Assembly: GCA_963756425.1 (NCBI GenBank)
Contig: CAVWNW010000012.1
Coordinates: 160,783-224,782 of the forward strand
Origin: an uncultured bacterium
GTDB lineage: Bacteria > Actinomycetota > Acidimicrobiia > Acidimicrobiales > VFJN01
DNA: 64,000 nucleotides
Reading direction: 5' to 3'
The notes under the pieces were generated by a model. That model made no database searches. It had not been told where the DNA came from and worked only from the letters and a program-made list of their open reading frames with translations. Shown one piece after another: positions 2,915-58,057 of the stretch (within the stretch, counting starts at the first letter, position 1; each line of letters starts with the position of its first letter). The position numbers and the translations under genes were made by a program.

Positions 2915-4292
2915 GTGGATCGCCCCCTCGTCATCGTGTCCAACCGCGGCCCCCTGTCCTTCCGGCGCGACGAGCGCGGCGATCTGGTGGCGACCCGGGG
3001 GGCTGGGGGGCTCGTCTCGGGACTCCGGCCGGTCGTGGCCGACACCGGCGCGACCTGGATCGCCGCCGCAATGTCCGACGGCGATCGCGAGGCGGCAGCC
3101 CAGGGGCTGATCGACGCCGAAGGCTTCCGCGTCGACCTGGTGGCCGTCGACCGCGAGGCGTTCAGGCTGGCCAACGACGTGGTGAGCACCGAGATCCTGT
3201 GGTTCGTGCACCACGGGCTCTACGACCTGCCCCGGGCGCCGGCGTTCGGGCGCGACCTGCGGGACGCCTGGCTGGCGTATCGCCACGTCAACGAGGCCTT
3301 CGCCGACGCCGTTGCCGAGCATGCGCCCGAAGGGCGCGGCCGTCCTCGTGCAGGACTACCACCTGAGCCTGCTGGGCGTGGCCCTGGCCGAGCGCAGGCC
3401 CGACGTGGCCGCCGTCCACTTCAGCCACACCCCCTTCGCCACGCCGACCTGGCTGGGGGTCCTCCCCAGCCACGTCCGCGGGGAGGTCCTGTCGAGCCTG
3501 GCCGCCCACCGAGCCTGCGGGTTCCACACGCGCCGTTGGGCGGACGACTTCCTGGCGTGCTGCCGCATCAACCTCGCGCTGACCCCGGCGACGTTCGTCT
3601 CGCCGCTGCCTGCCGACGCCGACGACCTGCGGCGCGTCGCCTCGTCGCCGGCGGCCGAGGCGGCCCTCACCGAGATCGAGGAGCAGGTCGGCGACAGGAC
3701 CGTCATCGCTCGCGTCGACCGCATCGAGCTGTCCAAGAACCTGCTGCGCGGGTTCCAGGCGTACGACGACCTGCTCGAAAATCGGCCGGAATGGCGCGAG
3801 CAGGTGGTGTTCCTGGCGTCGTGCTACCCGTCGCGCAGCGGCGTGCCCGCGTACGTCGAATACCAGCGCGAGGTCGAGGCCCTGGTGGACGTGATCAACG
3901 AGCGCTGGGCCACGCCCAACTGGACGCCGATCGTCTATGACACCACCGACGACTACCCGCGCTCGGTGGCGGTCCTGCGGCGTGCCGACGTGGTGCTGGT
4001 CAACCCCATCCGCGACGGGCTCAACCTCGTGGCCAAGGAGGCCGCGATCGTCAACGAGCGCGACGTGGTGGTGTGCCTGTCGACCGAGGCCGGCGTGTGG
4101 GACGAGCTCAGCGACGCCGTCGTGCAGGTGCAGCCGTTCGACGTGGCCGGGACGGCCGACGCCCTGGCGAAGGCTCTGCGCATGGACGACGTCGAGCGGC
4201 GCTCACGGGCGAAGCTGCTACGGCAGCTGGCCGTGGCGCGCCGGCCCGCCGACTGGCTGGCCGACCAGCTGGCGGCGGCGGGCGCACACTGA
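2915..4292 (+). pseudogene. otsA: Trehalose-6-phosphate synthase OtsA, reading frame interrupted by one extra base near 3332-3335
   Basis: The N-terminal part (frame of 2915) reads MDRPLVIVSNRGPLSF...WLAYRHVNEAFADAVAEHAPEG. The C-terminal part (frame of 3312) reads AAVLVQDYHLSLLGVALAERRPDVAAVHFSHTPF...VLVNPIRDGLNLVAKE. The two pieces join cleanly if c3335 (or one G of the ggg run) is removed. Confidence 0.8.
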
Positions 4293-6069: not shown

Positions 6070-6142
6070 GCCCGAGTAGCTCAGCCGGCAGAGCAGGCGC
6101 CTTGTAAGCGTCAGGCCGCGGGTTCGATTCCCGCCTCGGGCT
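6070..6142 (+). tRNA. tRNA-Thr (anticodon UGU)
   Basis: Manual cloverleaf: GCCCGAG-TA-GCTC-AGCCGGCA-GAGC-A-GGCGC-CTTGTAA-GCGTC-AGGCC-GCGGG-TTCGATT-CCCGC-CTCGGGC-T, 73 nt. Confidence 0.9.
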
Positions 6143-9864: not shown

Positions 9865-10938
9865 CTAGCTGTAGCGATCGAGGATGCTCGACTCGGCCAG
9901 CCGGGACAGGCCCTCCTTGATGGCCCGGGCGCGTGACTCGCCGACGCCGGCCACGTCGTCGAGGTCGTCGATCGTTGCCCGCATGATCTTCTGCAGGCTG
10001 CCGAAGCGCCCCACGATGCGCTTGATCACCGACTCGGGAAGGCGGGGGATGCGGGCCAGGAGGCGGTAGCCCCGGGGCTGAACGTTGGCGTCGAGATCGA
10101 CGATGGTGCCCGGAAGGTGGAGGGTCTCGGCCACGGCCCGGGGGTCGAGCAGCTCCTCGGTGCCCATGTCGGTGAGGGAGGCCATGGCCTTTTCGACCTC
10201 CCACTCCGACTCGGGATTGAAGTAGTCGAGGACTACCAGGCGTCGATCGTCGTCCACGCCCCCCATCAGCTCCTCGAGCTGGAGCTTGACCAGCCGTCCG
10301 TCTACGCCGAGCTCCACGATGTCGCCTGCGATCTCGTCGGCGATCCGCCGGACCATCTCGGTGCGTTGTAGGACGTTGACGACGTCGCGGACAGTCACGA
10401 GATCCTCGACCTCGAGGGCGGACAGCGCGGCCGTGACGCTGTCGAGGCGCTGCCGGTAGCGCTCGAGCGTCTGCAGCGCCTGGTTGGCCCGGGTCAGGAG
10501 GCGGGGGATGTTCTCGAGCGGATGCTTCTCGTCGTTGACGTAGACCGCGATGATCGACATGTCCTCCGACACCGAGATGACCGGGACGTTGATGGAACGG
10601 GCGACGCGCTCGGCCGTGCGGTGCCGGGTGCCGGTCTCGGACGTCGGCACGTTGGGGTTGGGCACGAGATGGACGTTGGCGCGGGCGATGCGGCTCGAGT
10701 CGCTGGCCAGGATGATGGCGCCGTCCATCTTGGCCAGCTCTGACAGCCGCTGGGGGCTGAAGGCGGCGTCGAGCAGGAACCCGCCCGAGCAGATGTTGAG
10801 GACCTCGGGGCCGTCGCCGACCACGATGAGCGCGCCCTTGTTGGCTTGGAGGATCCGGTCGAGTCCCTCACGCAGCGGGGTCCCCGGAGCGACCGCAGCG
10901 AGTGCGGCCATGAGCTCCGCGCTGGGCCGGGCAACCAC
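9865..10938 (-). CDS. disA: DNA integrity scanning protein DisA (diadenylate cyclase)
   Basis: GALIVVGDGPEVLNICSGGF...DGAIIL...RIARANVHL...GTRHRTAERV, plus a C-terminal HhH (VAGVGESRARAIKEGL). Confidence 0.95.
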   Translation of the reverse strand: MVARPSAELMAALAAVAPGTPLREGLDRILQANKGALIVVGDGPEVLNICSGGFLLDAAFSPQRLSELAKMDGAIILASDSSRIARANVHLVPNPNVPTSETGTRHRTAERVARSINVPVISVSEDMSIIAVYVNDEKHPLENIPRLLTRANQALQTLERYRQRLDSVTAALSALEVEDLVTVRDVVNVLQRTEMVRRIADEIAGDIVELGVDGRLVKLQLEELMGGVDDDRRLVVLDYFNPESEWEVEKAMASLTDMGTEELLDPRAVAETLHLPGTIVDLDANVQPRGYRLLARIPRLPESVIKRIVGRFGSLQKIMRATIDDLDDVAGVGESRARAIKEGLSRLAESSILDRYS

Positions 10939-11053: not shown

Positions 11054-11150
11054 CGAGGCAATGACGAACGCCGAGCCGAGGGCGAGGCAATGGCTAACGG
11101 TTTGAGTGCGCAATCGCCTCAGACTCCCGGCTGCGTTCGCCATTGCCTCG
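11054..11150. repeat. Nested inverted-repeat element, sequence variant of the GCGGAACC..ATGACCTC family architecture
   Basis: Outer arms are CGAGGCAATGACGAACGC (11054-11071) and GCGTTCGCCATTGCCTCG (11133-11150), complementary at 17 of 18 positions. The inner unit CGAGGCAATGGCTAACGG (11083-11100) has only a degenerate partner (11108-11120). The radA stop (11094-11096) lies inside the element. Confidence 0.7.
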
Positions 11151-12557
11151 GCGGTCGACGGGCGACAGTGCCGCGGGGGCCACCCGGGTGACGCGCAGCG
11201 CGTCGACGATCGACGCCGAGCGGGCCACGCGCATCCCGTCGGGCGGGTCGGGTGCCGACCGGGGCACGACCGCACGCGTGAACCCGAGCCGCGCCGCCTC
11301 GGCCAGGCGTCGCTCGGTGCGGTGCACCTGGCGCAGCTCCCCGCCCAGCCCGACCTCGCCGCACGCGACGAGGTCGGCAGCGAGCGGGTGGCCCAGCGCC
11401 GACGACGCCACCGCCAGGGCCACGGCAAGATCCGCGCCGGGCTCGGGCACCCGGACGCCCCCCGCCACCGCCACGTGCACCTCGCACCGACCGAGCGGCA
11501 GCTCGGCGTGCCGTTCGAGCACCGCCAGCACCTGGGCCAGCCGGCCGCCGTCGATGCCCTGCGCCGTGCGCCGGGGCGCGGGCGCCGGGCTGGGCGCCAC
11601 CAGCGCCTGAACCTCGACCAGCAGGGGCCGCTGCCCGTCGAGCACGGGTGCCACCACGGAGCCGGGAACGCCGGCCTGCCGGTCGGCGAGGAACAGCGCA
11701 CTCGGGTCGGGCACCCCGACGAGGCCCCCCTCACCCATCTCGTACAGGCCCAGCTCGTGGGTGCTCCCGAACCGGTGCTTCAGCGCCCGCAACATCCGCA
11801 GCGCGTGGTGTCGCTCGCCGTCGAAGGCGAGGACGGTGTCGACCAGGTGCTCGAGCACCCGGGGACCGGCCAGCCCCCCGTCCTTCGTCACGTGGCCGAC
11901 GAGCACCACCGTGACGCCGCGGCCCTTGGCGGCGGCGACGAGGCGGTGGGCGCAGCCGCGCACCTGGCCGACCGAGCCCGGGGCCGAGCTCATCTCCGGG
12001 TCGAACACGCTTTGGATGGAGTCGACGACCACCACGTCGGGCCCGAGGGTGTCGATGTGGTGGAGGACCTGGGGCAGCGACGTCTCGGCCACGAGCCACA
12101 GTGACGGCGGGCCCAGGCCCAGGCGCTCGGCGCGCAGCGCCACCTGGCGCGCCGACTCCTCGGCGGTCACGTACAGGCACGTGCAGCCGCGTGTCGCCTG
12201 GTCGGCCAGCGCCTGGAGCAGCAGCGTGGACTTGCCCACGCCGGGCTCGCCGCCGAGGACCGTGACCGACCCCGGCACGAACCCGCCCCCGAGCACGCGG
12301 TCGAGCTCCACGTCGCCGGTGGGCACCGGCTCGGTGGCGTCGCCCACGGCCTCGGCAATGGGGATGGGTACCGAGGGCACGTTGGTGTCGATGGGCCCGC
12401 CGACGCCTCCCCACCCCAGCCCGAGGCCGGGTCCCTGGAGTTGGGCCCGCTCTTCGACCAGGGTGCCGGAGGCGTCACACGCCGTGCACCAACCCATCCA
12501 CTTCGGTGCCTCGGCGCCACACGCGGTGCAGCGGTAGACGGTCTTGGTCCGGGCCAT
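11094..12557 (-). CDS. radA: DNA repair protein RadA/Sms
   Basis: It has an N-terminal zinc ribbon (YRCTACGAEAPKWMGWCTAC), the Walker A motif GGEPGVGKSTLLLQ, the KNRFG variant LKHRFG, and a Lon-like C-terminal domain. The last ~25 aa (..PVDRRGNGERSRESEAIAHSNR) are encoded by the repeat element. Confidence 0.95.
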   Translation of the reverse strand: MARTKTVYRCTACGAEAPKWMGWCTACDASGTLVEERAQLQGPGLGLGWGGVGGPIDTNVPSVPIPIAEAVGDATEPVPTGDVELDRVLGGGFVPGSVTVLGGEPGVGKSTLLLQALADQATRGCTCLYVTAEESARQVALRAERLGLGPPSLWLVAETSLPQVLHHIDTLGPDVVVVDSIQSVFDPEMSSAPGSVGQVRGCAHRLVAAAKGRGVTVVLVGHVTKDGGLAGPRVLEHLVDTVLAFDGERHHALRMLRALKHRFGSTHELGLYEMGEGGLVGVPDPSALFLADRQAGVPGSVVAPVLDGQRPLLVEVQALVAPSPAPAPRRTAQGIDGGRLAQVLAVLERHAELPLGRCEVHVAVAGGVRVPEPGADLAVALAVASSALGHPLAADLVACGEVGLGGELRQVHRTERRLAEAARLGFTRAVVPRSAPDPPDGMRVARSASIVDALRVTRVAPAALSPVDRRGNGERSRESEAIAHSNR

Positions 12558-12566
12558 GCTTCCGCA

Positions 12567-12606
12567 CCCTACGGAGGGCCTGTGACACCCAGGACCCTCC
12601 GTAGGG
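12567..12606 (-). terminator. Stem-loop downstream of the VOC gene and upstream of radA
   Basis: CCCTACGGAGGG-N16-CCCTCCGTAGGG, a perfect 12-bp stem. No clear U-tract follows it. Confidence 0.45.
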
Positions 12607-12626
12607 GCGGCAAATGATCAGCCGCG

Positions 12627-13400
12627 CTACGCGGGCGGCTGGATGAGCTTGAAGTTGATCCCGGACGGATCGGCGGCCGTGGCGAGACGGCCGTACGGGG
12701 TGTCCTCGGCCGGCTGCACGATCGATCCGCCGAGCTCGACGATCTTCGCCAATGTGGCGTCGGCGTCCTCGGTGCCGAAGTAGATCGACCATTGGCCCGG
12801 CACACCGTCGGGCAGGAAGGCGGTGGCGTCCATGATCCCGGCCAGCGCGGCCTCGCCCTCACCCAGCGTCGTGTAGTGGAGCTCGGGCGTGTCGCTGGCG
12901 ACGTGGGCATCCCAGGCGAAGACCTTGCGGTAGAAGTCGACCGAGGCGTCGTAGTCGCGGGTCTGCAGCTCGAACCACTGGGGGGTGTCCGGCTCGGCGT
13001 ACACGCCGAAGCCGGTGTGCGTGCCGGGCTGCCAGCCTCCGATGACGCCCCCTCCGGGGTCACTGACGACGACCATGCTGCCGAGGTCCATCACCTCCAT
13101 GGGTTCGGCCATGACCTGGCCGCCGTTGGCCTTGGCGGCGTCGGCCGTCGCCTTGGCGTCCTCGGAGGCGAGGTACACCGACCAGACGTCGGGCGCACCC
13201 GACTGGCCGTCGTTGCGCATGCCGCCGGCCACACGCACGCCGTCCTTGTAGAAGGTGAAGTATCCGCCGAGCTCCTCGGCGGGTTCGTCCGAGGTCCAGC
13301 CGAACAACTCGTGATAGAAGGCCCGCCCCTTCTCGACGTCGGACGTGAACAGCTCGATCCAGCAGGGGGCGCCGACGGGCGCCGAATCACGCTTGGGCAT
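12627..13400 (-). CDS. VOC/glyoxalase-family protein (two glyoxalase-like repeats)
   Basis: PCWIELFTSDVEKGRAFYHELFGW...WSVYLASEDAKATADAAKANGG, then a second repeat WFELQTRDYDASVDFYRKVFAW...WSIYFGTEDADATLAKIVELGG. The internal ATG at 13400 is preceded by GAGGAG at 6-nt spacing. Confidence 0.8.
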   Translation of the reverse strand: MPKRDSAPVGAPCWIELFTSDVEKGRAFYHELFGWTSDEPAEELGGYFTFYKDGVRVAGGMRNDGQSGAPDVWSVYLASEDAKATADAAKANGGQVMAEPMEVMDLGSMVVVSDPGGGVIGGWQPGTHTGFGVYAEPDTPQWFELQTRDYDASVDFYRKVFAWDAHVASDTPELHYTTLGEGEAALAGIMDATAFLPDGVPGQWSIYFGTEDADATLAKIVELGGSIVQPAEDTPYGRLATAADPSGINFKLIQPPA

Positions 13401-14268
13401 GGGGGACTCCTCGGGACTGGTGGAAACGGTGTCGGACGTTGGACGTGCCGGCGCGTCGGAACTCATCGCGGGCCGGGCGGCGGGCTCCCGGCTGCGCCGG
13501 ACCATCCCCACCGCCACCACCGCCACCACCGCCAGACCACACGCGACCGCGACGCCCGTGAGCGCCAGCACCCACCAGTCGCGGACGGTGCCCGTGGCCG
13601 CCAGGTCGACGGGCTCCCCGCCGAGCTCGGGCGTCCAGGCCGCCGCCTTCGAGTCGCCCGGCAGTTCGGCCGAGACCTCCAACGAGAACATCTCCGCCAG
13701 CGGCCGCCCCAGCTCCGCCTCGATCGCGCTCGGGATCCTGACCGAGAACCTCGCCCTCGAGGGCTGCCGCCAGGCCTTCGTCGCCGAAGGCCTCGAGGCC
13801 GCCACTCAGGTCGGCCGTGCCCTCGAACGTGAAGCGCGTCCGGCCGAAGCTGTCGTTCCGATCGACCCGGAGGTCGCGCAGCGGACCGTCCGTGCCGGCG
13901 ACCTCGGCCAGCACCTGCCCGGCCTCCTCGGGCGTCCCGAAGGGCTTGGTCGCCCGGATCCACACGAACCCGTCGTCGGCCGAGCCCGCCGGCCCGGAGA
14001 CGTGCCAGCCGGCCGCAGCCAGGTCGTCGGTCCGCACCAAGCGGGTGAGATCGGCGGTGGTGGACCGGCCGTCGTCGTCGAGATCGGGCACCCGTCCGAG
14101 GGCGTCGGCGTCCAGGCCCACGGCCACCGTGACCGTGCCCGATCCGTCCTTCGCAACGTCGACCGCCACGGTGGTCCGCACCTGACAGGCGGTGGCGGTG
14201 AGCACCACCAGCACCCCGAGCAGCAGCAAGCGAAAGGGCCGCCCCGAGGAGCGGCCCTTCGCGACCAA
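13401..14268 (-). pseudogene. LppM-like (DUF3153-type) lipoprotein gene with an apparent frameshift and no stop before the VOC gene
   Basis: The frame of 14268 gives a signal peptide and lipobox (LLLLGVLVVLTATAC) plus a domain up to ..GLEAFGDEGLAAALEGE. The expected C-terminal part (AIEAELGRPLAEMFSLEVSAELPG...) and TM anchor (WWVLALTGVAVACGLAVVAVVAVGMVRR) are in the frame of ORF 12627..13805. Confidence 0.5.
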
Positions 14269-14308
14269 CCGGTTGATCCCCCCGCTTCCGTTCAGTGGCG
14301 CTCCTGCG

Positions 14309-16843
14309 TCAGCCTTCGGCCGGCGGTGAGCCCCCCGCCTCGGCTAGCTCCATGGGCGGCGGGTTGAACCCCTCGACCGTGCGGAAGACGATGACCTTCT
14401 CACCCGTCTCGGGTTCGTCCTCGGCGTCGACCACCACGATCTCGCCGGCTCGAACCTCCTTGAGGAGGAGCTTCTCGGACACCGGGTCCTCGACCATCCG
14501 CTGGATGGCCCGACGCAGCGGCCGGGCGCCGAGCTGCGGGTCGTAGCCCTTGTGGGCCAGCAGGACCTTGGCCTCCGGCGTGAGCTCGAGCCCGAGGCCC
14601 TGGCCTTCGAGCTGGCGCTGCACCCGGGTGATCATCAGGTCGACGATCTGGGTGACCTCGTCGGTCGACAGCTCGTGGAAGACGATGGTGTCGTCGATGC
14701 GGTTGAGGAACTCGGGCCGGAACTGGGTCTTGAGCGCGTCGTTGACCTTGTCCTTCATCCTCTCGTACGAGATCGCCTCGTCGGCCCGGGCGAAGCCCAC
14801 GTTGGCCTTGCGCAGGTCGGCCGTGCCCAGGTTGGACGTCATGATCAGCACGGTGTTGCGGAAGTCGACCGAGCGCCCCTGGGCGTCGGTGAGCCGACCC
14901 TCCTCGAGGATCTGCAGCAGCGTGTTGAAGACGTCCGGGTGCGCCTTCTCGATCTCGTCGAACAGCACCACCGAGAACGGCTTGCGGCGGACGGCCTCGG
15001 TGAGCTGACCGCCCTCCTCGTAGCCGACGTAGCCCGGGGGCGACCCGACCAGCCTGGACACGGTGTGCTTCTCCATGTACTCGGACATGTCGAGCTGGAT
15101 GAGCGACGACTCGTCGCCGAACAGGAACTCTGCCAGCGTCTTGGCGAGCTCGGTCTTCCCGACGCCGGAGGGTCCCAGGAAGATATAGGAGCCACTCGGC
15201 CGCTTGGGGTCCTTCAGGCCGGCCCGGGTGCGTCGGATGGCCTGGCTGACCGAGCGGATCGCGTCCTCCTGGCCGACGACCCGCTTGTGCAGCTCGTCCT
15301 CCATGCGCAGCAGCTTCTGCGTCTCTTCCTCGGTGAGCTTGTAGACGGGGATGCCGGTCCACACCGAGAGCACCTCGGCGATGGCCTCCTCGTCGACCTC
15401 GTCGAACAGGTCGACGCCGGAGTCCTTGATCTCGCGCTCCTTGGACTCCTTGCGGGCCAGCAGCTCCTTCTCGGCGTCGCGCAGGCGCCCGGCCTCCTCG
15501 AAGTCCTGCGACTCGACCGCCTTCTTCTTCTGCTCGACCACCTGGGCCAGCTCGTTCTCGAGGTCCTTGTAGTCGCCGGGGGTCTGCATGCGCTTGATGC
15601 GCAACCGGCTGCCGGCCTCGTCGATGAGGTCGATGGCCTTGTCGGGCAGAAACCGGTCGGAGATGTAGCGATCGGCCAGGTTGGCCGAGGCCACTAGGGC
15701 CTGATCGGTGATCGTGACGCGGTGGTGGGCCTCGTAGCGGTCACGCAGGCCCTTGAGGATCTCGATGGTGTGGGCGACCGTGGGTTCGTCGACCGTGATC
15801 TTCGCGAAGCGCCGTTCCAGTGCGGCGTCCTTCTCGAGGTGCTTGCGGTACTCGTCGAGCGTCGTGGCGCCGATGGTCTGGAGCTCGCCCCGGGCCAGCA
15901 TGGGCTTGAGGATCGACGCGGCGTCGATGGCACCCTCGGCGGCGCCTGCGCCCACCAGGGTGTGGATCTCGTCGATGAACAGGATGATGTCGCCGCGCGT
16001 GCGGATCTCCTTGAGCACCTTCTTCAGGCGCTCCTCGAAGTCGCCGCGGTAGCGGCTGCCGGCGACCAACGCCCCCAGGTCGAGGGTGTACAGCTGCTTG
16101 CCATTGAGGGTCTCCGGCACGTCGTTGGACACGATGTTCTGTGCCAGGCCCTCGACGATCGCCGTCTTGCCGACCCCGGGCTCGCCCACCAGCACCGGGT
16201 TGTTCTTGGTGCGGCGGGACAGCACCTGCATGACCCGCTCCATCTCGCGGCCCCGGCCGATGACCGGGTCGAGCTTCTTCTCGCGGGCCAGCTGGGTCAG
16301 GTTGCGCCCGAACTGGTCGAGCACCAGCGAGCCGGTGGGCTGGGACTCGGAGGAGCCGCCACCCGCCGTGGCGCCCGCCTTCTCGGGGCCGGGTCCGCCG
16401 GAGCCCTGGTAGCCCGATAGGAGCTGGATGACCTGCTGGCGCACCCGCGACAGGTCGGCGCCCAGCTTGACCAGCACCTGGGCGGCCACACCCTCGCCCT
16501 CCCGGATCAGGCCGAGGAGGATGTGCTCGGTGCCGATGTAGTTGTGCCCCAGTTGCAGCGCCTCCCGCAGCGACAGCTCCAGGACCTTCTTCGCGCGGGG
16601 CGTGAACGGGATGTGCCCAGAGGGCGACGAGCCACCCTGGCCGATGATCTCTTCAACCTGCTGGCGAACGGCCTCCAGGCTGATGCCCAGCGACTCGAGC
16701 GCCTTGGCCGCGACACCCTCGCCCTCGTGGATGAGGCCCAGGAGGATGTGCTCGGTGCCGATGTAGTTGTGGTTGAGGAGCCGGGCTTCTTCCTGGGCCA
16801 GGACGACCACTCGGCGAGCCCGGTCGGTGAACCGTTCGAACAA
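14309..16843 (-). CDS. clpC1: ATP-dependent Clp protease ATP-binding subunit ClpC1
   Basis: 844 aa. It starts [37 protein letters not shown] and has two AAA+ modules ([15 protein letters not shown]; [15 protein letters not shown]). Confidence 0.97.
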
Positions 16844-19715: not shown

Positions 19716-20093
19716 TCAGGGCGCCGCCCTCCATGGCGCCCGCCACTCGGGCGCGTCGAACCGTTCGCCGACGTAGATGGTTTCGCGGGTGATCTTGCCG
19801 TCCCTGATCTCGAGGATGTCGACTCCGTAGTGCGGTTCGCCGCCGTCATAGCTGACGTTGATCTCCACCACCCAGATGTCGCCTGCGCCTCTGACGCGGC
19901 GGATGTCATAGGCCACCGATCCCGGATAGCGGCTGCGCCACTCGCGGATGTTCGCAACGCCCTCGAATCGCTCCCCCGACTGCGGGAACTCGAGCACCGC
20001 ATCGTCGTCGTACATGTCGTGCGAGCCGACGGGATCCACCCCTTCCCGCCCGAGGTTCCGCAACAACATCGCCCTGACCGTTTCCGGATCCAT
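19716..20093 (-). CDS. SnoaL/NTF2-like fold protein
   Basis: 125 aa. ..DMYDDDAVLEFPQSGERFEGVANIREW...DIWVVEINVSYDGGEPHYGVDILEIRDGKITRETIY is the typical SnoaL_2 pattern. Confidence 0.6.
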   Translation of the reverse strand: MDPETVRAMLLRNLGREGVDPVGSHDMYDDDAVLEFPQSGERFEGVANIREWRSRYPGSVAYDIRRVRGAGDIWVVEINVSYDGGEPHYGVDILEIRDGKITRETIYVGERFDAPEWRAPWRAAP

Positions 20094-21744: not shown

Positions 21745-21838
21745 GAGGCATTGGGTTCCGCCGTGGTGAGGCGGAGGTCATCGGTTCCGCAAGCGGAACC
21801 CATGACCTCGGCCGGCCGGGTGCGGAACCCATAACCTC
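21745..21838. repeat. Nested-palindrome element, copy A (four GCGGAACCnATGACCTC-type units, arranged rev-rev-fwd-fwd)
   Basis: The four units are GAGGCATTGGGTTCCGCC (21745-21762), GAGGTCATCGGTTCCGC (21774-21790), GCGGAACCCATGACCTC (21793-21809) and GCGGAACCCATAACCTC (21822-21838). The inner pair is complementary at 16 of 17 positions with a 2-nt loop. Confidence 0.85.
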
Positions 21839-35301: not shown

Positions 35302-36141
35302 TCACGCGGCCGCCAACACCCGGTCACAGGCCTCGATCGCCCGCACGGTGGCGGGCACCTCGTGGACGCGGACCATGCTGGCGCCGCGCAACAAAGCCCA
35401 CGCGGCGGTGGCGATCGAGCCCTCCAGGCGGTCCCCAACCGGTGGGACGGTCCGGGTGCGGTCGGCTCGCGCCGCCAGGGCGCCGAGCGTCGACTTGCGG
35501 CTGGTGCCGACCAGCACCGGATAGCCGGTGGCCACCAGGACGTCGAGGTTGGCGAGGAGGGCGAGGTTGTGATCCAAGGTCTTCCCGAAGCCGATGCCAG
35601 GATCGATCCACACCTCCTGCACCCCTGCCGCCCGGGCGGCGTCGGCCCGGTCGACGAGGAAGTCGCACACCTCGGCCACGACGTCGTCGTACACCGGGTC
35701 GGCCTGCATGGTCCGGGGATCGCCCAACATGTGCATGGCCACGAACGCGGTGCCGATGCCGCCGGCCACCGCCGCCAGGCTGGCCGACACGTCGTTGATC
35801 ATGCGGGCCCCGGCGGCCACCGCGGCCTCGGCCACGGCCGCCTTGCGGGTGTCGATCGAGACAGCCACGCCGTCGGACGCCAGCGCCTCGACGACGGGGA
35901 GCACCCGCCGCAGCTCCTCGTCGACGGGCACCGGCTCGGCCCGGGGGCGGGTGGACTCACCGCCCACGTCGACCCAATCCGCTCCCTGGTCCACCATCGT
36001 GCGGCCGTGGGCGATGGCGGCCCGGTGGTCGAGGAATCGTCCGCCGTCGGAGAACGAGTCCGGGGTCACGTTGACGACACCCATGACCCGGCGGCGTCCG
36101 CTCTCCACGATCGGCAAGCATATGTCGCGCCCTGTGACCAC
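35302..36141 (-). CDS. folP: Dihydropteroate synthase
   Basis: VMGVVNVTPDSFSDGG...DVGGESTRPRA...SIDT...INDVS...DPGIGFGKT...LVGTSRKS. The start is approximate (GTG 36141). Confidence 0.9.
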   Translation of the reverse strand: MVTGRDICLPIVESGRRRVMGVVNVTPDSFSDGGRFLDHRAAIAHGRTMVDQGADWVDVGGESTRPRAEPVPVDEELRRVLPVVEALASDGVAVSIDTRKAAVAEAAVAAGARMINDVSASLAAVAGGIGTAFVAMHMLGDPRTMQADPVYDDVVAEVCDFLVDRADAARAAGVQEVWIDPGIGFGKTLDHNLALLANLDVLVATGYPVLVGTSRKSTLGALAARADRTRTVPPVGDRLEGSIATAAWALLRGASMVRVHEVPATVRAIEACDRVLAAA

Positions 36142-40395: not shown

Positions 40396-41319
40396 CTAGT
40401 GGGGATCGGGCCGGTCGAGCCGTAGCCGCCCCCGGGACCGCGTCACCCGCCAACGCCCCGGGAGCTCGCACGCCACGGCCTCGCCCCGCGCCACGGCGAG
40501 GACGCGATCGACGCTGGCCCCGTCGGGCGGATGCAGCTCGTCGCCGCCGGGCCCGCCGGAGCGCAGCCACCGCCTGACGGCGCGGCGGGCGAGCGGCGCC
40601 GGGGCCGCGGCGAGCGTCCGGGCGTCGCAGGGATCGAGCGCCGCGGACAGCTCGTCGAGGAGCGCGACGTCGTCGCGTGCCAGGTCGGTCTGGCGGGCGA
40701 GGATCGGCGCGATGTCGCGCTCGGCGATGTCGTCGAGCAGCGGAAGCAGCTCGTGCCGGACCCGGTTGCGGCGGAATGCCGGGTCGCGATTGGTCGGGTC
40801 CTCGACCGGCTCGAGGCTCAGGGCCTCGCACAGGGCCCGGGTCTCCCGGCCGCGCAGGCGGCGCAGTGGGCGGGCCCGCGGGTCCATGCCGGCAAGGCCG
40901 TCGAGGCCGGCGCCCCGCAGCAGGTTCAGCAGCATCGTCTCCGCCTGGTCGTCGGCGGTGTGCCCGGTGAGCACGCCGGCCGGGAGGGCGGCGTAGCGGG
41001 CGGCCCGGGCGCGAGCCTCGAGGTTGGGGCCAGGCTCCACCGGGGCCCGCACCCCGCAGAACGCGGCGCCCCAGCGGTCGGCCGCGGCCCGCACGACGTC
41101 GGCCTCGCCGGCGGACCCCGGCCGCAGCCCATGGTCGACGTGCACGGCCGTGACCCGACAGCCGGCCTCTACGGCGAGAACCAGGAGCGCCAGCGAGTCG
41201 GCCCCGCCCGACACCGCGCACGTCACCGCCGTCCGGTCCGTCGCGAAGTCGCACCTGGCCAGCAGGGCGGCGATCAGCTCGCCGCCCGGAGGCGTTGCCT
41301 GCGTTCGTCCGGAGGTCAT
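40396..41319 (-). CDS. tilS: tRNA(Ile)-lysidine synthase
   Basis: It has the PP-loop AVSGGADSLAL, then HVDHGLRPGS. The start ATG (41319-41317) lies inside repeat unit b1. Confidence 0.85.
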   Translation of the reverse strand: MTSGRTQATPPGGELIAALLARCDFATDRTAVTCAVSGGADSLALLVLAVEAGCRVTAVHVDHGLRPGSAGEADVVRAAADRWGAAFCGVRAPVEPGPNLEARARAARYAALPAGVLTGHTADDQAETMLLNLLRGAGLDGLAGMDPRARPLRRLRGRETRALCEALSLEPVEDPTNRDPAFRRNRVRHELLPLLDDIAERDIAPILARQTDLARDDVALLDELSAALDPCDARTLAAAPAPLARRAVRRWLRSGGPGGDELHPPDGASVDRVLAVARGEAVACELPGRWRVTRSRGRLRLDRPDPH

Positions 41320-41409
41320 GAGTTCCGCCGGGGCGAGGCCGAGGTCATAGGTTCCAGGCCCGGAACCTATGACCTCAGGCTCCCACGTGCGGAACTCACG
41401 ACCTCGGGC
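41312..41409. repeat. Nested-palindrome element, copy B (best copy)
   Basis: The four units are GAGGTCATGAGTTCCGC (41312-41328), GAGGTCATAGGTTCC (41341-41355), GGAACCTATGACCTC (41362-41376) and GCGGAACTCACGACCTC (41389-41405). The inner stem is a perfect 15 bp with a 6-nt loop. The outer stem pairs at 16 of 17 positions. Confidence 0.9.
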
Positions 41410-41429: not shown

Positions 41430-42521
41430 CTACCCGACGAGCTCCTCGGAGAGCTTGACCCGGTCCAGCCACTCCTGGGGGGCCCGGATCTCGGCCAGGG
41501 TGGGCAGCCACTCGGGCCCGCGCCAGGCGGCGTCGAGGGCGCCGGGCCCGCCATGGCGCTCGACGTAGGCGATGAACGACTCGCCCTGCGCGTACTGCTG
41601 GAACTTGGCGTCGATGCCGAGCGCCTTCTGCAGCAGCTTGGCCACGCTGCCCCCCTGTTTCCGCCGCTCGCGCAGCGCCCGCGAGAACCGGGCCGCCGAG
41701 GGGACGTGACCCTTGCCGGCCCGGTCCATGGTGACGTCGCCGTGGCCCTCGAGCAGGCTCATCAGACCGCCGATCCGGCCGAACAGCTCACGCTGGTCGG
41801 GGCTGGCCAGCAGGGTGGCGATGCCCCCCTCGTCAAGCGGGTTGTTGCCCGAGCGCAGGTCCTCGATCACCCGACCGAGGGCGTCGAGGAATCGCTTGGG
41901 ATCGGGATCGACGGCGCCGAGCGTCTGCTCGACAAGGGAGAGGAAGTGCGGCCGCAGCCACGGCACCCCGGTGAACTGCGCCCGGTGGGTCACCTCGTGG
42001 AGGGCCAGCCACAGGCGGAACTCGTGGGGCGGGAAGGCGTAGCGCTTCTCCAGCGCCAGCACGTTGGGACCCACGTAGTAGACGAGGTCCTGGTCCTCGG
42101 GGTCCTCGTCTTCGATCACCAGCAGGTCGTACTGACCGAGCACGCGAGTGGCCATCCACCCGAGCAGGGTGCCGACCTCGACACCAGCGATCCGGCGGGA
42201 CACCGCCGCCGGGACCGCGGCGATCCCCTGCTTGTCCCCCGTGCGCTCGGCCATCTTGTCGGTGAGCGGGCGCAAAAGGCGACCGAAGCTGGCGAGGTTG
42301 GCCCGCACCCAGTCGGCCCGGTCCACCACCCGGGCCCGGGCCGGACCGCTGGCCGAGCGCAGCCCGGTCGCCGCGGCCACGAGCTCCTCGGCTTGGGTGG
42401 TCACCTCGGCGAAGTCGGACTCCAGCCGGTCGTAGTGGTACGACGCCGCCAAGGGCTCGTGGCCGGAGACCCGGACCGCCACGCGTTCGGCGAGCCCCCA
42501 GTCGACCGGACTGACTGGCAC
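41430..42521 (-). CDS. Zinc-dependent metalloprotease, DUF2342/TIGR03624-type
   Basis: It has the HEXXH motif (LALHEVTHRAQF). The general pattern is that of the actinobacterial 'coenzyme F420 biosynthesis-associated'-type hydrolase family. Confidence 0.7.
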   Translation of the reverse strand: MPVSPVDWGLAERVAVRVSGHEPLAASYHYDRLESDFAEVTTQAEELVAAATGLRSASGPARARVVDRADWVRANLASFGRLLRPLTDKMAERTGDKQGIAAVPAAVSRRIAGVEVGTLLGWMATRVLGQYDLLVIEDEDPEDQDLVYYVGPNVLALEKRYAFPPHEFRLWLALHEVTHRAQFTGVPWLRPHFLSLVEQTLGAVDPDPKRFLDALGRVIEDLRSGNNPLDEGGIATLLASPDQRELFGRIGGLMSLLEGHGDVTMDRAGKGHVPSAARFSRALRERRKQGGSVAKLLQKALGIDAKFQQYAQGESFIAYVERHGGPGALDAAWRGPEWLPTLAEIRAPQEWLDRVKLSEELVG

Positions 42522-56092: not shown

Positions 56093-56165
56093 AGCCCGAG
56101 AGGAGAATCGAACTCCTGACCTACGCATTACGAGTGCGTTGCTCTGCCGTCTGAGCTACTCGGGC
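56093..56165 (-). tRNA. tRNA-Thr (anticodon CGU)
   Basis: The reverse complement folds as GCCCGAG-TA-GCTC-AGACGGCA-GAGC-A-ACGCA-CTCGTAA-TGCGT-AGGTC-AGGAG-TTCGATT-CTCCT-CTCGGGC-T, 73 nt. Confidence 0.9.
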
Positions 56166-56190: not shown

Positions 56191-57288
56191 CTAGTTGCCG
56201 CCGACCGGCGCGGGTGGCAGCCGGGCGACCAGCGCCTGCAGCAGGAGCGTCTCGTTGGGATAGCGGATAAGGGCCAGCCCGGCGTCGTCGATGCGCGCCA
56301 ACGCATCGACCAGCCGGGCCGACGACGGGCCCGGGCCGCTGGCGACCAGCGCGTCGCGGTAGGCGGACGCCAGGGTGGCGAGCCCGAAGCGCAGCTCCGC
56401 CATGCGGAACCGGCGGATCTCCCGGCGGTGACGCGTCTCCGTGTCGCGCTTGCCCGCGCCCCGCAGTCCGAACTGCGCGACCTGGGCCTCGATGGCGGCG
56501 GCCTCGTCGGCCTGCCGCTGCTGCAGCGGGACCAGCGCCTCGCCGATCATCGCCTGCAGCTCCGCCACGATCTGGGCGGCCCGGGCTCCGGTGCCGTCGA
56601 CCCGGCGGGGCACCTCCCGCCATGCCTGGTGCCTCAGGGCCAAGCGGTCGTCGGTCGCGAGGGTGCGGGCGCGGTCCATGTCGCCCGATGACGCCGCGGA
56701 CGCCGCGGCCGCACGGTCGGGGGACACGCCCTCCGCCAGCAACCGCTCGGCGATGGCAGTCGCCGGCAGCGCGCAGACCTCGATGCGCACGCACCGGCTG
56801 GCGATCGTCACCAGCTCGGTGACCACCTCGGTGGCCAGCAGCACGAACACCGTCGACGCCGGCGGCTCCTCGACGACCTTGAGCAGGTAGCCGGCGGCCT
56901 CGTCCTCCATGAGCTCGCACCCCAAGGCGACAACCACCTTGCGGTTGCCCTCGACCGGCGCCAACGTCGCGTGCCGCACCATGCGCTCGGCCTCACCCTT
57001 GCGGAACGTCATGCCCTCGGGCTCGACGATGCGCAGGTCGGGATGCTGCTCGGCGAGTGCGAGCCTCACGTGACGTTCGCGGTCGCCGTCGCTGGCGTCC
57101 GAGGTGGCCAGGACCTGGGCGGCGAAGCCCCGCGCCAGCGCCCGCTTGCCGGAGCCCGGGGGGCCGACCAGGAGGTAGGCGTGGACGGGCGCCCGGGCCG
57201 CCGCCTCGAGCTGGCGGATCGCGGCTGCCTGGTCGACGACGTCGCGCCACGGGTCGCTGCTACGGGCCGGAGCGGTCGGCGAGGTCAT
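56191..57288 (-). CDS. holB: DNA polymerase III subunit delta'
   Basis: HAYLLVGPPGSGKRALARGFAAQVL...LLKVVEEPP..TVFVLLA. The start ATG (57288-57286) lies inside repeat unit c1. Confidence 0.85.
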   Translation of the reverse strand: MTSPTAPARSSDPWRDVVDQAAAIRQLEAAARAPVHAYLLVGPPGSGKRALARGFAAQVLATSDASDGDRERHVRLALAEQHPDLRIVEPEGMTFRKGEAERMVRHATLAPVEGNRKVVVALGCELMEDEAAGYLLKVVEEPPASTVFVLLATEVVTELVTIASRCVRIEVCALPATAIAERLLAEGVSPDRAAAASAASSGDMDRARTLATDDRLALRHQAWREVPRRVDGTGARAAQIVAELQAMIGEALVPLQQRQADEAAAIEAQVAQFGLRGAGKRDTETRHRREIRRFRMAELRFGLATLASAYRDALVASGPGPSSARLVDALARIDDAGLALIRYPNETLLLQALVARLPPAPVGGN

Positions 57289-57378
57289 GGGTTCCACCAG
57301 TCCAAGGATGAGGCCATGAGTTCCGAATCCGGAACCTATGACCTTGGGCGGGCCGGCGTGGAACCTATGACCTCGGGC
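57281..57378. repeat. Nested-palindrome element, copy C
   Basis: The four units are GAGGTCATGGGTTCCAC (57281-57297), GAGGCCATGAGTTCCG (57310-57325), CGGAACCTATGACCTT (57330-57345) and GTGGAACCTATGACCTC (57358-57374). The outer arms are complementary at 16 of 17 positions. Confidence 0.88.
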
Positions 57379-58057
57379 CGGACGGCCCGCCGCCGGCGGA
57401 CGGCCCGCCCCCAACGTCGCCCGCGAGCTCCGGGCAGCGGGCCACGACCGACTTCCAGACCACGGCCTCGACGTCGTCGGCCGGTGCCGTGCCGTCGACG
57501 ACCACCCAATGGGACGGGTCCGCCGCCGCGAGCGCCCGATAGCCCCGCATCACCCGGTCGTGGAACCCGTCCCCTGCGGCCTCGAGACGGTCGGGCTCCG
57601 GATCGGCACGACCGGCGGCGCGGGTCGAGCCCAGCTCCCAGGGAACGTCGAGCAGCAGCACCACGTCGGGCGCCAGGCCGGCTGCCGCCCAGCCGGACAG
57701 CCGGCGCAGGTCGTCGACCGGCAGCCCCCGCCCGAAGCCCTGGTACGCCAGCGTCGACCCGACATAGCGGTCGGACACCACGTGCCGCCCCACGGCCAGT
57801 GCCGGGCGGACCACCTCGGCGACGTGCTGCGCCCGGTCCGCGGCCATGAGGAGCGCCTCGGCGCGGTCGTCGAGCCCGGTGGTGCGGGCGTCGAGCAGGA
57901 GCGCCCGCAGGGCCGCACCGATGGCGGTCCCCCCGGGCTCCCGCGTCAGCACCGCACCGAGCCGGCGTGCGAGCCGGGCGGCCTGGGTCGACTTGCCGCT
58001 GCCCTCACCGCCCTCGAAGACGACGAAACGGCCCGTGGGCGTCGTGGGCGAGATCAT
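57365..58057 (-). CDS. tmk: Thymidylate kinase
   Basis: FVVFEGGEGSGKSTQ...LTREPGGT...DRY..S.LAYQG. The Gly-rich tail and the TAG stop (57365-57367) lie in the repeat element. Confidence 0.9.
   Translation of the reverse strand: MISPTTPTGRFVVFEGGEGSGKSTQAARLARRLGAVLTREPGGTAIGAALRALLLDARTTGLDDRAEALLMAADRAQHVAEVVRPALAVGRHVVSDRYVGSTLAYQGFGRGLPVDDLRRLSGWAAAGLAPDVVLLLDVPWELGSTRAAGRADPEPDRLEAAGDGFHDRVMRGYRALAAADPSHWVVVDGTAPADDVEAVVWKSVVARCPELAGDVGGGPSAGGGPSGPRS

Follow-up and report, generated by a model that had tools for sequence, protein, structure and literature searches.

A palindromic array of four short units, found between genes in many Acidimicrobiales genomes, is described here from a 64-kb stretch of DNA of an uncultured member of this order (GenBank contig CAVWNW010000012.1, positions 160,783 to 224,782; 71.5% G+C; hereafter the window), in which it occurs four times (copies A to D). 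The arrays make up a family with its own geometry and conservation pattern, they flank a gene whose product combines an AbiEi-like domain with a nuclease domain, and the sequence of their units changes with the lineage of that protein. We consider it probable that the element is a dispersed four-site array, the units of which are the predicted binding sites of the AbiEi-like/nuclease protein and which has spread much as repetitive extragenic palindromes (REP) have done with their REP-associated tyrosine transposases (RAYT).

A reading of the window from its letters alone (the sequence-only reading) had reported three loci of one architecture and a fourth of the same layout with a diverged unit, and this shared nested-palindrome element was confirmed. 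Copies A, B and C are type 1 elements of 94 bp, each with the same four 15-bp units, two reading GAGGTCATNGGTTCC followed by two of its complement GGAACCNATGACCTC, and with unit starts exactly 29, 21 and 29 bp apart. Copy B has spacers of 14 nt and a loop of 6 nt; as claimed, its inner arms GAGGTCATAGGTTCC and GGAACCTATGACCTC form a perfect 15-bp inverted repeat around this loop, and its outer arms (41312-41328 and 41389-41405) pair at 16 of 17 positions. The inner units of copy C carry 2 and 1 mismatches. In copy D, the fourth locus, the type 2 units start 29, 22 and 29 bp apart and enclose a 7-nt loop. The type 1 unit pattern, with up to three mismatches allowed, matched the window 15 times compared to 5.5 expected, a count reached in 0 of 100 shuffles, and 12 of these 15 matches fell within copies A, B and C. 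Supportively, a scan for the four-unit layout that was blind to unit sequence returned exactly copies A to D in the 64 kb. An element profile was built from 39 of 40 exact-geometry copies, the three window copies included; it gave E ~1e-24 for A, B and C and E 0.39 for D, and no other match in the window was convincing. Weak partial matches (E 0.5 to 9) were located at 36037-36108, which by eye is not element-like, at 56969-57022 and at 20019-20079. At the Rfam gathering thresholds, two tRNAs passed over the window and no family was found for the element, which at lax thresholds attracted just generic microRNA-precursor hairpins (20-33 bits versus thresholds of 65-168). The two tRNA genes lie at 6070-6142 and at 56093-56165, the latter just downstream of holB on the minus strand.

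Further copies, for which the sequence-only reading had proposed a search, were numerous. Scanning the inner hairpin against one genome per species identified 45 further loci with the element in ~14 metagenome-assembled genomes (MAGs) of Acidimicrobiales, and the exact 29-21-29 bp spacing of unit starts was found in 40 of the 51 elements of the window and these loci. A few loci carry just two or three units, and a few others are extended outwards by one to three units, spaced 29-35 bp (39 bp in L028). Between the orthologous loci L024 and L029 the difference is exactly one spacer-unit module of 29 nt; whole modules of this kind were gained or lost at L024 43-107 versus L029 1444-1479 and at L003, L008, L014 and L033, and at several loci the sequence past the last unit repeats the previous spacer. 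These repeated spacers point to tandem duplication as the origin of extra outer units. In a scaffold of L014 (2100-2218), half-elements stand on either side of a run of Ns; the repeat probably misled scaffolding there. The type 2 unit of copy D recurs between folB and folK in L047 and on both sides of the nuclease gene in L072, so that type 2 copies are known from three sources. With genes called in the loci by their own codon log-odds, trained on long open reading frames (ORFs), every copy examined lay between ORFs or overlapped just ORF ends. Most copies sit between co-directional genes, and arrays were found just upstream of gene starts on 45 sides versus just downstream of gene ends on 21. 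Literature searches, in a library holding part of the literature, returned nothing published about the repeats or connecting DUF559 proteins with repeats. In line with the Rfam results and with the earlier remark that no described family was recognisable, the element family is previously undescribed.

One gene is repeatedly associated with the arrays. At L020, a 329-residue ORF with AbiEi_4 and DUF559 domains lies between two full elements, and the MAG that contains it has at least eight other type 1 copies on other contigs. Dispersal within one genome is also seen for the L071 lineage, whose matching unit occupies three successive spacers. Homologues with 72-83% identity (L049-L052) have the element on both sides (E 1e-16 to 1e-26), and orthologues with 57-63% identity (L053-L055) have four-unit arrays on both sides with the same geometry and the unit GAGGCAATAGGTCCC. 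A metagenome scan with the protein alignment added 29 more loci at 43-76% identity. In the follow-up sample, 36 loci chosen by protein and not by repeat, 44 arrays were detected within 300 nt of the gene (18.9 kb searched) versus 3 in the other 107 kb, and 28 of the 36 loci had an array within this distance. Of 34 loci, 26 had an array upstream of the gene; 18 of 33 had one downstream, and 16 of 31 were flanked on both sides. The upstream array ended 65-111 nt before the gene start in most loci. Among loci with no four-unit array, the gene is bracketed by simpler lineage-specific palindromes in L073, L076, L077 and L079, preceded but not followed by one in L080, and preceded by degenerate units in L084. 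The more distant homologues L085-L087 have one or two repeat copies per side with a common GAACCCAGGGTTC core, those of the two sides being mutually inverted in L087. Some loci lie between two acyl-CoA dehydrogenase genes and others in unrelated contexts. The idea that the L020 gene is a multi-copy, insertion-sequence-like gene was dropped: tblastn found no second copy in the loci then collected, and homologues occupy a syntenic site. Neither the element nor the protein was found in plasmid records.

Two further features of these loci were recorded. A TGTCACA motif occurs ~20-45 nt before the ATG of the AbiEi-nuclease gene, past the upstream array (L056 ~150-230, L058 ~2920-3000, L084, L053, L054 and L073); it is kept across lineages with differing array units, lies in a stretch of lower G+C in L056, L058 and L084, and forms TGACAT-N5-ATGTCA in L056. 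It could be a promoter or a second operator. Most contigs with the gene are just 1.0-1.6 kb long and extend barely beyond it; assemblies appear to break at the flanking palindromes, and the arrays probably contribute to many very short contigs.

The flanked gene encodes a protein of ~310 residues with an AbiEi-like winged-helix domain followed by a Vsr/EDxHD-type, PD-(D/E)XK nuclease domain. In Foldseek searches with its AlphaFold model (mean pLDDT 90.3), approximately the first 200 residues matched the AbiEi antitoxin 6y8q, and the C-terminal ~105 residues matched the catalytic domain of the homing endonuclease I-Bth0305I (3r3p, TM 0.71), NGO0050 (3hrl) and Vsr. The PADLOC AbiEi models matched the protein at E 4e-31, and D229, E240, D242, H247 and D256 are invariant in 33 sequences. 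The family comprises 2,381 clusters at 50% identity (E <= 1e-30), and a wider circle at E <= 1e-10 takes in 15,206 clusters; NCBIfam has no model for it, and no functional study of an AbiEi_4-DUF559 fusion was found in the literature searched.

The units around any one gene all carry the sequence of that gene's lineage. Proteins 71-100% identical to that of L020 are accompanied by GAGGTCATGGGTTCC (GAGGCAATGGGTTCC in L049, L057 and L060), several lineages at ~60% identity by GAGGCAATAGGTCCC, GAGGCGATGGGTTCC and GAGGCAATGCGTCCC, those at 57% by GAGGCAATGGCGCTC, L072 at 51% by GAGGCAATAGCGAAC, which is the type 2 unit of the window, and those at 46-47% by GAGGCAATGAGGACC. L066 (60%) has the much diverged unit AGGAACCTGGGCTCA, which still begins GAGGAACC, and L074 (52%) the unrelated AGTCGTTTCTGGTCG, both in the same geometry. 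The closer two proteins are, the more alike their unit consensus sequences tend to be (Mantel r 0.31, a value attained in 18 of 5000 permutations). Unit sequences that differ between protein lineages suggest a co-evolving recognition pair, as in REP with RAYT.

In the mechanism that we propose, each 15-bp unit is most likely bound by the AbiEi-like winged-helix domain, and a multimer seated on four sites, not an RNA fold, would explain by its shape why the 29-21-29 spacing is fixed while spacer sequence is free. Protein and arrays would evolve together as a recognition pair, in the way of REP and the RAYT transposase, and the window copies at tilS, holB, disA and the MFS transporter gene would be solo arrays, three of type 1 and one of type 2. 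By analogy, the simplest account of these solo arrays is that they stand to the AbiEi-nuclease protein as REP does to RAYT; the nuclease may have a role in spreading or maintaining them, and a bound array or a transcribed hairpin might affect the neighbouring genes. Two of the roles offered by the sequence-only reading gained support, that of a REP-like dispersed element and that of a set of sites for a DNA-binding protein, for which the fusion is the candidate. Its remark that no transposase is nearby holds for the window and was incomplete, as a candidate protein was found encoded at other loci.

Alternatively, the arrays might be operators of an ordinary regulon, with the AbiEi-nuclease fusion or another factor as host transcription regulator, recruitment of arrays at many genes to the benefit of the host, no selfish spread, and no part for the nuclease in moving arrays. 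AbiEi-family proteins do autoregulate through repeat arrays in their own promoters (PMC7319586), and the fairly constant 65-111 nt between upstream array and gene, the excess of arrays before gene starts (45 versus 21 sides), and purifying selection on units and spacing at orthologous sites would all fit regulation. However, the AbiEi-nuclease gene is flanked downstream as well, and its nuclease residues are invariant. The solo arrays lie inside operons, between stop and start codons and with no recognisable promoters, and adjoin the functionally unrelated genes tilS, holB, disA, folK and that of an MFS transporter; moreover, copies are lost in close relatives, and full turnover of the recognition sequence between lineages is more typical of selfish or conflict systems. 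On balance, a regulon seems unlikely.

To determine what is conserved in the arrays, five orthologous sets with full elements were defined by BLAST between loci, with flanking genes 73-90% identical. Identity between orthologues was 86% in the outer units, which had no part in the choice of loci, 63% in the spacers, 52% in the loops and 57% in the 12-nt flanks, and spacer length was constant within the five sets. Paralogous copies at different sites share 85% of outer-unit positions and 44% of spacer positions. These comparisons indicate that selection acts on unit sequence and spacing, the pattern expected of sites read by a protein.

Pairing of the arms was then weighed, as the sequence-only reading had also considered an intercistronic RNA double hairpin acting in processing, stability or attenuation. 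A transcribed array kept by selection for its long double hairpin, which controls processing, stability or translation of the flanking cistrons, would account for the very stable predicted folds (-60 to -82 kcal/mol, z -4.5 to -10.6), for the prevalence of copies between co-directional genes, and for start codons of tilS and holB that would be buried in the outer stem. Nevertheless, the 14-nt spacers form 6.15 Watson-Crick pairs within an element and likewise 6.15 between elements, and the spacer helix is 50.7% paired over 39 copies, so that one continuous long hairpin was rejected because the spacers pair at chance level. Nor was compensation seen within copies: 80.6% of cells were paired versus a shuffle mean of 80.6%, with 258 of 500 shuffles that re-paired arms among copies reaching the observed value, and at variable outer-stem positions 8 to 16 of the 39 copies are unpaired. 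The arms pair because each unit fits one consensus and not because pairing is maintained; the conserved feature is sequence. Copy A also lies between divergent genes, no Rfam family matches, and orientation, assigned unsupervised from the spacers, is tied to transcription in 18 versus 9 independent cases, a bias that is not significant. The double hairpin as the selected feature was thus not borne out, and an RNA element, which would also leave unexplained why arrays flank one particular gene family, appears improbable. The sole position that hints at arm-to-arm correction is the variable base of the inner units (columns 38/57 of alignment A3; 26 Watson-Crick and 5 G-U pairs versus 8 unpaired). 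Likenesses to an IdeR iron box, a tRNA T-arm and Shine-Dalgarno or anti-Shine-Dalgarno mimicry were considered on reading the sequences and dropped for misfits in spacing or key positions.

Least probable is a classical miniature inverted-repeat transposable element (MITE), that is, a deleted DDE-type transposon with two transposase-binding sites per end that moves in trans: the inverted outer units, the two direct sites per side, which resemble the multi-site ends of Tn7, Mu and IS21-type elements, the dispersed intergenic copies and their variable presence between relatives would suit it, yet the copies have no spacer sequence in common, the AbiEi-nuclease fusion is the only gene repeatedly tied to the arrays, no direct repeat stood out in the 12-nt flanks of exact-geometry copies by inspection, without a formal test for target-site duplications, and no gene for a DDE transposase was apparent on reading the window, the gene calls and the ORFs, without a systematic search.

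Several points weigh against the account of array and protein proposed here. The link between the two is correlative, and the AbiEi-nuclease gene is not in the 64-kb window. Many flanked loci are orthologous, at the acyl-CoA dehydrogenase site, and therefore represent fewer independent events than loci. The high identity of the inner units between orthologues, 97%, is biased because inner units were used for finding the loci. No target-site duplication or fresh insertion was seen, and at tilS the occupied and empty sites are too diverged to define insertion junctions or target-site duplications. With paralogous spacers just 44% identical, no recent master copy or whole-element copying is evident; recent amplification from a master copy was likewise rejected, as copies in one MAG share weak spacer motifs only. 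Relatives with a TilS 83-90% identical have lost the element at the tilS site or keep a decayed form of it, and single copies are therefore dispensable. Finally, the repeats within a pair are inverted in Rv2827c and the two units per side are direct here, which makes the operator analogy inexact.

The arrays also supply codons to genes in the window (Table 1), all of those flanking copies B, C and D being on the minus strand.

Table 1. Arrays in the window and the genes next to them; coordinates are window positions.
Feature	Position	Strand	Remarks
Copy A, type 1 array	21745-21838		in 350-nt spacer of divergent genes
Copy B, type 1 array	41312-41405		between the Zincin_2 metalloprotease gene and tilS
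Copy B units, GAGGTCATNGGTTCC orientation	41312-41326, 41341-41355		outer, inner
Copy B units, GGAACCNATGACCTC orientation	41362-41376, 41391-41405		inner, outer
Copy C, type 1 array	57281-57374		between tmk and holB
Copy D, type 2 array	11055-11149		between radA and disA; unit GAGGCAATGACGAAC / GTTCGCCATTGCCTC
radA	11094-12557	minus	stop codon within copy D
tilS (tRNA-Ile lysidine synthetase)	40396-41319	minus	ATG 41319-41317 in outer unit of copy B
Zincin_2 metalloprotease gene, upstream of tilS	41430-42521	minus	Pfam family assigned in syntenic loci
holB (DNA polymerase III delta' subunit)	56191-57288	minus	named from sequence; ATG 57288-57286 in outer unit of copy C
tmk (thymidylate kinase)	57365-58057	minus	TAG stop 57367-57365

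The sequence-only reading had placed the ATGs of tilS and holB in the outer-left unit, with products beginning MTS, and the coordinates agree. The unit ATG is in frame and open in 3 of 3 orthologues at each site (copy B has orthologues in L044 and L031, copy C in L004 and L001), gene callers put the start of close TilS relatives at MTS, and no usable alternative start is nearby: for tilS, none occurs for at least 85 nt in the window and L031 copies, with a TTG at +49 in L044, and for holB, the window and L004 copies are free of in-frame alternatives for 150 nt downstream, with a GTG at +4 in L001. The TAG stop of tmk is the CTA at the variable position of an outer unit of copy C, and the last residues of RadA are encoded by copy D, with disA, downstream of radA, starting at 10938. 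The neighbouring genes have come to use array codons, as starts in tilS and holB and as a stop in tmk, with the stop of radA falling in the type 2 array. The earlier claim that the element fills the whole spacer needs a small correction at tilS, where 24 nt separate copy B from the upstream Zincin_2 stop codon at 41430-41432; at tmk and radA, the upstream stop falls inside the element. Copy A is adjoined by the MFS transporter gene (minus strand, start 21613) and a plus-strand ORF from 21964.

These codons follow from the unit sequence. The type 1 unit contains CATG and ATGA; forward units carry ATGA, and reverse units carry ATG or TAG depending on the variable base. Because 29 mod 3 = 2, two frames are blocked across the array and the third stays open and carries ATGs, and from the ATG in the third unit to the TGA in the fourth runs a mini-ORF of 10 codons. 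In the family as a whole, 14 of 33 cases have the unit ATG and the downstream gene in the same frame, approximately the one in three expected by chance, and the forward ATG is missing from other unit types. TilS relatives at 83-90% identity start elsewhere than in an element: upstream of tilS, L048 has a 42-nt spacer with no element, L046 a decayed GGTTCC-N18-GGAACC remnant and L047 another hairpin. In-frame ATGs at the chance rate, together with relatives that lack the element at tilS, indicate that start-codon donation is a local by-product and not a function; it is real at tilS and holB and incidental there, and the notion that the element exists to donate starts or to couple translation was rejected on these counts and on the unit types without a forward ATG. 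The hairpin of L047 (9806-9845) is perfect and G/C-rich, cgaggggggaggg aaa ccctcccccctcg, and begins 4 nt past the Zincin_2 stop, at the position of the four-unit array in the window; the L047 locus itself begins with a TrwC relaxase gene. In L048, the gene at the ftsH position (11929-15189) encodes 1086 residues with AAA, Peptidase_M41, a faint LAGLIDADG_3 and GTP_cyclohydroI, which an intein in FtsH, or a fusion with folE made in gene calling, could explain.

Comparison with known systems places the arrays nearest to REP, bacterial interspersed mosaic elements (BIME) and REPINs, with their RAYT (Y1 HUH) transposases, of Proteobacteria. Shared with these are short conserved units that form inverted pairs and occupy intergenic spacers, in many cases inside operons; many dispersed intergenic copies in one genome (four in 64 kb, and at least nine contigs of one MAG); long persistence at orthologous sites; a gene that in several lineages is flanked by the same repeats, often on both sides; and a repeat sequence specific to the gene lineage. 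In contrast to RAYT, the flanked gene joins an AbiEi-like module to a Vsr/EDxHD nuclease and has no Y1_Tnp or HUH tyrosine transposase. Whereas a REP is an imperfect palindrome of 20-40 bp, the unit here is the 15-bp, non-palindromic GGAACCNATGACCTC with no GTAG or CGTC head, four units stand at fixed 29-21-29 spacing with spacers of unconstrained sequence, and no hairpin selection is detectable. A REPIN, two inverted REPs with a spacer that form one hairpin, is copied whole, unlike the arrays, in which paralogous spacers are 44% identical and not complementary. By analogy, the arrays and the AbiEi-nuclease gene resemble a REP/RAYT partnership with an unrelated enzyme.

Mycobacterial interspersed repetitive units (MIRU) also belong to an actinobacterial lineage and to spacers between operon genes, and their stop and start codons reportedly overlap those of the flanking genes; however, they are head-to-tail direct repeats of 46-101 bp oriented with the operon, compared to two reverse and two forward units here, and no cognate protein is known for them. 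The intergenic repeats ERIC, Correia/NEMIS and BOX (~100-150 bp) are either imperfectly palindromic or modular and share transcripts with neighbouring genes; unlike the arrays, they are conserved over their whole length, they have no sequence similarity to the element, and no nuclease gene is known that any of them flanks and co-varies with.

The second likeness is to AbiEi-family operators, PabiE of S. agalactiae and the Rv2827c promoter of M. tuberculosis, which are bound by a homologous DNA-binding module and consist of two- or four-repeat arrays directly preceding the gene for the binding protein. The abiE promoter holds two 23-bp repeats to which AbiEi binds; Rv2827c binds to four, arranged in pairs with gaps of 13 bp inside each pair and 4 bp from one pair to the other (PMC7319586), which is close to the 14 and 4-8 nt here. 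The gene-linked copies include arrays immediately upstream of the gene, and the window copies are solo, away from any such gene. The differences are that those operators are single-copy promoter elements of a toxin-antitoxin operon, whereas our arrays also lie downstream and are dispersed in the genome; that the partner is a fused nuclease domain here and a separate AbiEii nucleotidyltransferase there; and that the repeats measure 15 bp versus 23 bp, with two units per side direct here and inverted there.

For annotation, the arrays provide start or stop codons to the essential genes tilS, holB, tmk and radA. More broadly, and more tentatively than the account of the element given above, the arrays may represent a repeat-enzyme partnership of a new kind, in which AbiEi-like/Vsr-type fusions each recognise a lineage-specific palindromic array, are flanked by it, and spread or maintain its solo copies. 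To our knowledge, HUH (RAYT) transposases are so far the only enzymes whose vertically inherited genes are flanked by cognate REP-like repeats. If true, the partnership would be a functional analogue of REP/RAYT made from a PD-(D/E)XK nuclease and a toxin-antitoxin-type DNA-binding module, and would give the widespread AbiEi_4-DUF559 fusion proteins a testable function. As a second, unrelated enzyme class, it would mean that the association of repeat and enzyme arose more than once, and it would extend that association to the Actinomycetota.

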